This document shows positions 26,107 to 26,250 of a DNA stretch of 64,000 nucleotides, in pieces (the stretch's first letter is position 1; every line of letters begins with the position of its first letter). This DNA is from a virus. The DNA is taken from UHGV virus genome UHGV-0026213; one strand, given 5' to 3'. The translations under genes were made by a program, and so were the position numbers. Under the pieces are notes generated by a model, which was not told the DNA's origin, ran no database searches, and saw only the letters and a program-made list of their open reading frames with translations.

Positions 26107-26250
26107 TGATTTCTGTAAAACACAAAAAAGCTATCTTCGCTGTTGTTATTGCTGTTGTTCTGGGTTGCCTGTACCTGGACATCGACAAAGGCTACGACAC
26201 TTGCATCGACAACGGTAATTCCGTTGCACAGTGCACTGGTCGTGGTTAAT
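26107..26250 (+). CDS. small (47 aa) membrane-anchored cysteine-containing protein
   Basis: Not in ORF track; RBS AGGAG; strong codon bias; hydrophobic N-terminus AIFAVVIAVVLGCLYL; promoter motif upstream and terminator downstream. Confidence 0.5.

Follow-up and report, generated by a model that had tools for sequence, protein, structure and literature searches.

A conserved, codon-adapted 47-codon micro-gene of an SPN3US-like giant phage and its possible role at the host envelope

Among the small envelope proteins made by phages, Llp of T5 and Ltp of TP-J34 are superinfection-exclusion lipoproteins, and Sp and Imm of T4 are also small phage envelope proteins; a signal peptide or an anchor directs their export, they act on the receptor or on the penetration machinery of the incoming phage, and Sp, Imm and Llp need to act within minutes of infection. 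A protein of comparable size from a bacterial host is MgrB of Escherichia coli, a PhoQ inhibitor of 47 amino acids (aa) with two periplasmic cysteines that are needed for function. Genes for proteins this small tend to be overlooked, and a function is hardly ever assigned to what they encode. The present analysis concerns a micro-gene at positions 26106..26249 on the plus strand of the virus genome UHGV-0026213 (the whole stretch of 64,000 nucleotides (nt) is called the window here), which comprises 47 codons and a TAA, encodes the peptide MISVKHKKAIFAVVIAVVLGCLYLDIDKGYDTCIDNGNSVAQCTGRG and is the orthologue of gp66 of the giant phage SPN3US (SPN3US_0066, AEP83899.1 / YP_009153360.1). It is the most codon-optimised gene in these 64 kb, is kept across five genera of SPN3US-like phages, and its peptide probably belongs to the earliest products of an infection. 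The evidence makes it very probable that the product is a real, early, highly expressed micro-protein that is anchored and faces the periplasm, and superinfection exclusion is put forward tentatively as its role.

The orthologue gp66 shares with the window peptide its length of 47 aa, 53% identity and the tail DYxxCxxNGNSxxxCTGRG, and its gene is likewise the first behind the same promoter-like motif, between gp64/gp65-like genes and a minus-strand DnaB-like helicase. The two differ in the hydrophobic segment, where gp66 has AFAVLS without a cysteine and the window peptide has Cys21 in VLGC; in the gene layout, given that gp66 overlaps gp67 and the terminator stands after gp68, whereas the window gene is followed by a terminator at once; and in codon bias, which is 0.58 in gp66 versus 0.84 in the window. 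No mention of gp66 was found in the literature searched, nor in the supplements of the SPN3US essential-gene paper. What is new here is the conserved extreme codon adaptation, the promoter-proximal early unit, the tail in the form of a CX9C hairpin, and the alternation between a lipobox and a signal-anchor; these points give a specific testable hypothesis, with no mechanism established.

Gene call, codon usage and family

The ATG lies at 26106 and the TAA at 26247-26249, as read from the window sequence, which confirms the 47-codon reading frame reported by the initial annotation and moves its coordinates (26107-26250) one base to the left. The strong ribosome-binding site reported with it is also present, in the form of a Shine-Dalgarno AGGAG at 26094..26098 (plus strand), which the sequence itself shows 7 nt ahead of the ATG, and homologues carry AGGA/GAGG-type sites at the equivalent position. 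In a predicted RNA fold, the Shine-Dalgarno sequence and the start codon fall within a weak, G-U-rich hairpin of 9 bp (26094-26114, plus strand; AGGAGUUAU/AUGAUUUCU), which might modulate initiation.

The most striking property of the locus is its codon usage, in which the high bias described earlier is found to go far beyond chance. Using the Sharp-Li weights for E. coli, the micro-gene has a codon adaptation index (CAI) of 0.835, against 0.73 for the major capsid gene (30225-32519), the best of the long open reading frames (ORFs), 0.71 and 0.66 for two other long genes, and a median of 0.28 for the 55 long ORFs. When the three most biased genes of the window are used as an internal reference, the value is 0.843, which ranks first among 194 small ATG ORFs, with the runner-up at 0.458, and is reached by none of the 14,081 windows of 47 codons in the non-reference genes. 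The homologues, with CAI values of 0.48-0.70, usually rank first or close to first in their operon. Bias of this degree strongly indicates that efficient translation has been selected for, and the ribosome-binding site and the codon usage together argue for very high or very fast expression. On the same subject, it can be observed that three long plus-strand genes stand far above the rest (~0.66-0.74 versus the median of 0.28), at 15090-16361, 16438-17700 and 30225-32519, the last of which is the phiKZ-type major capsid gene, while one of the other two encodes a very acidic product.

The comparison of 12 genes of the family by the Nei-Gojobori method indicates that the reading frame is under purifying selection, given that the last 19 codons have a proportion of synonymous differences (pS) of 0.611 against 0.135 for non-synonymous differences (pN), and the hydrophobic part has a pS of 0.62 against a pN of 0.41. 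Only the frame of the micro-gene is free of stops in all 12 genes, and its conservation in relatives, the lack of which would have spoken against the initial annotation, is therefore observed. An antisense ORF of 57 codons (26088-26261, minus strand) is open in the window and interrupted in most relatives, and was rejected as a candidate. The micro-gene is genuine and protein-coding, and the call is secure.

The window belongs to the SPN3US-like group of giant phages, as determined by megablast and tblastn, which comprises the genera Seoulvirus, Machinavirus, Erskinevirus and Wellingtonvirus and, more distantly, Derbicusvirus, and its nucleotide identity to these relatives is only ~79-80% even for the major capsid and helicase genes. 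The nearest relative found is a 26-kb Logan contig (L016), in which the micro-gene differs at 4 nt, three of them synonymous and one non-synonymous, and the promoter core and the terminator are identical. The peptide matches PHROG 8574 (phrog_8574) over its full length (hmmscan, E=3.4e-23, residues 1-47 versus profile 1-47), which was the sole match in the scan of PHROGs and has no assigned function. Homologues are found by tblastn in 60 phage records, nearly all of them annotated "hypothetical protein". The family had thus already been catalogued, as PHROG 8574 and as SPN3US gp66, a point that was missed at first, and the description of the gene as unannotated is valid for the six-frame track on which it was based and not for most of the related GenBank records.

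A profile search of 5.8 billion proteins recovered 32 homologous clusters, all of 45-51 aa, and the profile searches recovered the cluster of the window protein itself (P0001) at E=2.7e-21 and 4.4e-20. An exhaustive search with a hidden Markov model gave only 11 matches among 1.84 billion representatives, 7 of them at E<1e-10, and the family is considered confined to the SPN3US-like clade for this reason. The outcome depends on the type of search: a word-index protein search with the single sequence finds one near-identical protein, and the family appears only with tblastn and with an alignment as the query.

Syntenic orthologues are present in at least 15 phage records of the five genera (Seoul-, Machina-, Erskine-, Wellington- and Derbicusvirus). 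In each of the 15 related loci that were inspected closely, the micro-gene lies downstream of gp64/gp65-like genes, with the minus-strand DnaB-like helicase behind it if the stretch examined extended that far; in Wellington, Kwan and pEa_SNUABM_11 that stretch ends before the helicase. A distant branch, with the tail GYEQCRANG[YH]SxMTCNR, occupies the syntenic place in Phobos, Derbicus, EarlPhillipIV and Cronobacter phage CR5. The CR5 homologue (L018, NC_021531.1, 2501-2638) has 45 aa (MKAYFNTRVLAVFIIATLLGTLGASVVKGYEQCRANGHSSMTCNR) and a CAI of 0.67, and stands without annotation in the CR5 record.

Two phages of the clade, SPN3US and Asesino, are among those experimentally shown to be nucleus-forming (review PMC13282480). 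The window phage is read as a jumbo phage of this kind. A link of the peptide to the early phage infection vesicle or to the nucleus machinery was considered and is unlikely, because the family is confined to the SPN3US-like clade and would not be a core gene of the nucleus-forming phages.

The early-type transcription unit

Following the terminator of the preceding gene (25875-25902), the window presents an early-type promoter motif at 26024..26058 on the plus strand, made up of an A-tract and CAGATATATATTACCTAGG, which is presumed to be a promoter of the virion RNA polymerase. The motif reads aaaaagatttCAGATATATATTACCTAGGTGAGAG, and its core, CAGATATATATTAC, occupies 26036-26049. The pattern CAGATAKAWWTTAC has three exact matches in the window (17781, 26036 and 52848) and five with one mismatch, against 0.15 expected, and all three exact copies lie upstream of plus-strand genes. 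In relatives from Seoul-, Machina-, Erskine-, Wellington- and Derbicusvirus the motif is near-identical, while the surrounding DNA is at most 80% identical. The conserved promoter motif that the initial annotation placed at 26036 is thus found to be both enriched in the window and almost invariant in relatives from several genera.

Jumbo phages that encode RNA polymerases each have a conserved AT-rich motif of ~10 nt, centred near -10, before their early operons, and wherever transcripts were mapped, such a motif was an early virion-polymerase promoter (PMC7598289). Given this precedent and the conservation of the motif, the assignment of the promoter to the early class is well founded. No relevant paper was retrieved by a text search for the promoter core TATATTAC; the early consensus of phiKZ also contains this core.

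As the first cistron, the micro-gene stands 64-67 nt behind the motif in the window and in SPN3US; in ChrisDB, Huxley, Caitlin, phiEaH2 and further phages, one to three small genes come before it. The promoter is thus not private to the micro-gene, and serves a whole early operon. At its other end, the gene is closed by a hairpin resembling an intrinsic terminator, GGCACC-UUCG-GGUGCC, at 26257..26272 on the plus strand (the element extends to 26284, with a T-run at 26278-26284), the stem of which starts 7 nt past the stop codon and is followed by CTTAATTTTTTT; this is the UUCG terminator that had been reported at 26258. A terminator also follows the micro-gene of Erwinia phage Huxley after 7 nt, with another stem, the same UUCG loop and the same TAATTTTTT tail. 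Taken together with the layout of SPN3US, the common design is a short promoter-proximal unit that contains the micro-gene. A scan of 25800-26400 against Rfam returned only a meaningless tmRNA fragment (E=0.2).

Another structure is predicted by folding at 26052..26078 (plus strand). Most copies of the promoter have a hairpin of 6-12 bp within ~6 nt (in the window at 17795-17830, 26052-26078 and 52862-52895, and in the relatives L001-L018), with 5' arms of the types GAGAG.., GATAGA.. and GAACGA.., and a 3' arm that co-varies with the 5' arm between phages. Given that the structure is kept and the sequence is not, this is probably the 5'-terminal stem-loop of the early transcripts, and it might have a role in stability, export or promoter clearance.

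Architecture of the predicted peptide

Residues 1-24 (26106..26177, plus strand) form a putative export or anchor segment, in which a basic n-region with K5, K7 and K8 precedes a run of 16 uncharged residues, A9-L24, in agreement with the hydrophobic N-terminus described initially. The N-terminus has a net charge of +3, and the maximum Kyte-Doolittle value over 19 residues is 2.30. Across the family, the net charge of the N-terminus is +2 to +4, the uncharged run has 15-22 residues, mostly 18-20, and the hydrophobic segment varies in sequence while it stays hydrophobic. Proline is absent from the window peptide and from 35 of the 36 family members. The targeting of the peptide to a membrane is supported by these features.

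The conserved polar tail comprises residues 29-47 (GYDTCIDNGNSVAQCTGRG; 26190..26246, plus strand), with the codons of C33 at 26202-26204 and of C43 at 26232-26234. Seven residues are invariant across 32 sequences (C33, G37, S39, C43, T44, G45 and R46), the consensus of the tail is DYNxCxxNGNSxxxCTGRG, and the window peptide has every invariant column (C-x3-G-x-S-x3-C-T-G-R). The initial annotation counted three cysteines in this tail, and two of them, C33 and C43, are there; the third, C21, belongs to VLGC, where the hydrophobic segment ends.

The position of C21 is of interest in its own right, given that V18-L19-G20-C21 (26157..26168, plus strand) resembles a lipobox, with Leu at +2, and passes a rule of the PROSITE PS51257 type, which requires a basic n-region, a hydrophobic h-region and a lipobox [LVI..][..][AGS]-C whose cysteine is at position 15-35; the elements matched in the window peptide are K5/K7 and FAVVIA-VV-L-G-C21. 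The rule is passed by 13 of the 36 members (as LAC, VAC, AAC, FAC or LGC), position -1 being A or G in every case and Asp never occurring at +2, and the homologue in Kwan is named 'Lipoprotein' in UniRef. The cysteine is not conserved throughout the family, being absent at this position from SPN3US, Huxley, phiEaH2, Asesino and the Derbicusvirus branch. C21 is thus a possible lipoprotein acylation site, which had been overlooked by the first reading of the sequence. In the family as a whole, the lipid anchor appears to be optional, and what seems to be conserved is a short tether that would hold the hairpin at the periplasmic surface of the membrane.

The AlphaFold model, built on an alignment of 32 sequences, predicts a helix at residues 4-35, a turn at NGNS and a short helix at 40-44, with a mean pLDDT of 85. 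This predicted helix-turn-helix geometry brings the CX9C cysteines together, from which a disulfide between C33 and C43 is inferred and hence a periplasmic location, consistent with the positive-inside rule and with oxidation by DsbA. One possible target for the detection of the product by mass spectrometry is the peptide CIDNGNSVAQCTGR.

A search of the representative library also found a protein of 381 aa (P0033, E=1.2e-5), which has a hydrophobic N-terminal region and four tandem tail units of the type YNxCIxNGNSxxQC; the repeat may also be written as (A/D)Y(N/D)xCIGNG(N/A)SxxQC. Because the unit is repeated four times in this protein, the tail may be seen as a self-contained mini-fold, and the CX9C hairpin apparently also occurs outside phages, as a repeat module. 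A different arrangement is observed in Salmonella phage SPFM7 (L014, LR535904.1), where the unannotated interval 2400-2640 has segments of gp66 and gp67 in scrambled order, with the tail motif directly before the transmembrane (TM) segment and the pieces of gp67 permuted. Similar truncated matches were found by tblastn in ~7 further SPFM records, and the scrambling reflects either a genuine rearrangement or an assembly artefact that recurs.

Possible roles and the surrounding genes

The elements described above may be joined into a mechanism of the following kind. Its first steps are well supported: the micro-gene, as the first cistron behind the early-promoter motif, forms a short promoter-proximal transcription unit, because the UUCG terminator closes the gene, and the AGGAG site and the near-perfect codon usage make a fast burst of peptide possible. 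The basic N-terminus and the hydrophobic segment would then lead to insertion in the inner membrane with an N-in/C-out orientation. In the window phage, the VLGC lipobox may be processed by Lgt/LspA to yield a lipopeptide of 27 residues, which the Leu at +2 would direct to the outer membrane, and in the relatives that have no lipobox, the segment of 18-20 residues would be retained as a signal-anchor. With either anchor, the invariant tail of 19 residues would be placed at the periplasmic membrane surface, where C33 and C43 (CX9C) would be oxidised, stapling a helix-NGNS turn-helix hairpin that ends in CTGRG. This hairpin may bind one target that is common to phages of Salmonella, Erwinia, Escherichia, Proteus and Cronobacter, which would suggest as the target a highly conserved component of the envelope or a conserved element of the incoming phage's penetration apparatus.

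The likeliest outcome of this mechanism, put forward tentatively, is superinfection exclusion, in which the envelope is altered within minutes of infection and the entry of a further phage is blocked. The initial annotation had suggested an abundant early membrane peptide with a role in host takeover or exclusion; the first part agrees with the early-type promoter, the ribosome-binding site and codon usage, and the predicted membrane targeting, while the second is drawn from analogy with other small early phage envelope proteins. For exclusion, this analogy makes a tentative case, and the combined statement of an anchored early micro-protein that acts in exclusion falls somewhat short of an even chance. 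The likeness to Llp, Ltp, Sp and Imm would be that of a small phage-made envelope protein. The differences are more numerous, given that no sequence or profile similarity to Llp, Cor, Ltp, Sp or Imm was found in PHROGs, Pfam, NCBIfam and PADLOC; that the mature part of the window peptide, of ~20-27 residues, is much shorter; and that llp adjoins the gene of the receptor-binding protein, whereas none is annotated in the stretches examined around the micro-gene.

Several other points weigh against exclusion by an early, abundant and anchored hairpin. Proteins that mask receptors, such as Llp, change along with the receptor and exist as receptor-specific variants, whereas the tail of gp66 is invariant across host genera. 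The lipobox cysteine is missing in ~2/3 of the family and, if it is processed where present, the homologues would be divided between two membranes, a situation that one common mechanism does not easily accommodate. The promoter is assigned to the early class by the conservation of its motif; the codon bias of a 47-codon gene shows selection for translation efficiency and not abundance as such; and the AlphaFold model rests on a shallow alignment of closely related sequences. Finally, no link to any characterised exclusion protein, by homology or by experiment, emerged from Pfam, NCBIfam, PADLOC, the Protein Data Bank (PDB) or Foldseek: scans of the peptide and its homologues against the first three gave nothing above noise, the sole match of a profile search in PDB sequences was a chance one, to a CRF receptor (E=0.11), and a Foldseek comparison of the AlphaFold model with the PDB gave nothing below E=4.

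A broader and more speculative proposal, which is doubtful at present, is that the gp66 family represents an unrecognised class of early jumbo-phage envelope effector, in the form of a disulfide-stapled helical hairpin of ~20 residues. Such an effector would be made within minutes in amounts similar to those of a capsid protein, would be tethered at the periplasmic side by a signal-anchor helix or by a lipid, and would disable a step of phage entry or of envelope physiology that is universally conserved in Enterobacterales. The repeated switching between members with and without a lipobox would then imply that periplasmic tethering matters and membrane identity does not. If the peptide is an exclusion or envelope-takeover factor, it would help to explain how the envelope is secured early by nucleus-forming jumbo phages, and would supply a minimal periplasmic binding module of 20 residues; it would also be relevant to the design of phage cocktails, given that related therapeutic phages might exclude one another.

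On the other hand, the anchored hairpin may serve host takeover with no block of the incoming phage, by switching off or on a bitopic or periplasmic host protein, such as a sensor kinase, a divisome component, a peptidoglycan hydrolase or a protease. The models for this are the action of MgrB on PhoQ in E. coli and that of gp56, a small early membrane protein of SPO1, on FtsL. With MgrB the peptide shares its length, a single N-in/C-out TM helix, a cysteine beside a small residue, and two periplasmic cysteines ~10 residues apart, and both the early promoter and a tail that is invariant across phages of five host genera would fit a conserved host target. The resemblance does not extend to homology, given that 12 members of the family have no match to the Pfam MgrB family at E<=10, that hhalign gives a probability of 22.8% over 18 columns of the TM segment only, and that the tail motifs are unrelated; unlike MgrB, the window peptide is phage-encoded, early and of extreme codon bias. 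Host targets of low copy number need no codon usage at the level of a capsid gene, and the alternation of lipobox and TM anchor speaks against the kind of specific TM-TM contact through which MgrB partly works. Regulation of a host protein of this kind is unlikely, though only slightly less probable than exclusion and well ahead of the explanations that follow.

It is very improbable that the product is a membrane-active toxin or a lysis peptide, whether a Hok/Gef-like depolariser, an antiholin or an o-spanin-like lipoprotein that affects lysis or its timing. The size, the N-terminal TM segment and the cysteine-containing periplasmic tail do resemble Hok-type toxins, and the lipobox, the small size and the periplasmic cysteines recall Rz1-type o-spanins, which are also small phage lipoproteins; there is, in addition, a faint and non-significant Foldseek similarity to helical-hairpin membrane toxins (thionins, E~7), and the repeat protein P0033 has a sub-threshold Thionin match. 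Against this, the promoter is of the early and not of the late type, the tail has no proline, whereas o-spanins are Pro-rich, the lipobox is absent in most members (its cysteine in ~2/3 of the family), and no Pfam match to Hok_Gef or spanin was found at E<=10. No neighbouring gene is annotated with a lysis function, nor is any adjacent gene annotated as an i-spanin, and an early mass depolarisation would presumably harm a phage with a long, energy-hungry cycle.

Finally, a leader peptide whose translation governs read-through of the terminator at 26257 into the 271-codon gene behind it (or a mere chance ORF) can hardly be the explanation, for although the order of promoter, short ORF, terminator and gene is attenuator-like and the stop codon is 7 nt from the terminator stem, where a terminating ribosome could disturb the formation of the hairpin, the attenuator is effectively refuted by the purifying selection on the tail, whose amino acids are invariant with synonymous sites near saturation, and by the many relatives in which the ORF overlaps the start of the next gene with no terminator behind it, to which the extreme codon bias common to the homologues and the lack of an Rfam element at the locus may be added.

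With regard to the surrounding genes, the order in the window is 23718-25037 (phrog_3245), 25064-25870 (phrog_8163), the promoter, the micro-gene and the helicase at 28112-29674 on the minus strand. Behind the terminator of the micro-gene, the ORF of 271 aa (26304-27119, plus strand) has 20-27% identity to the gp70-like proteins of the relatives and ends in a CxxC...CxxC pattern (CEEC...CKEC) with the look of a zinc ribbon. It is followed by three small paralogous ORFs of 56-71 aa on the plus strand (27196-27396, 27483-27653 and 27753-27968), which have in common with gp71 and gp72 of SPN3US the motif F-(Q/N)-(Q/E)-R-(L/V/M). Strong stem-loops are present beside and between these ORFs, at 27125-27152, 27400-27427, 27661-27684, 27719-27748 and 27984-28006, and together they look like a tandem array of mini-genes and hairpins ahead of the minus-strand helicase.

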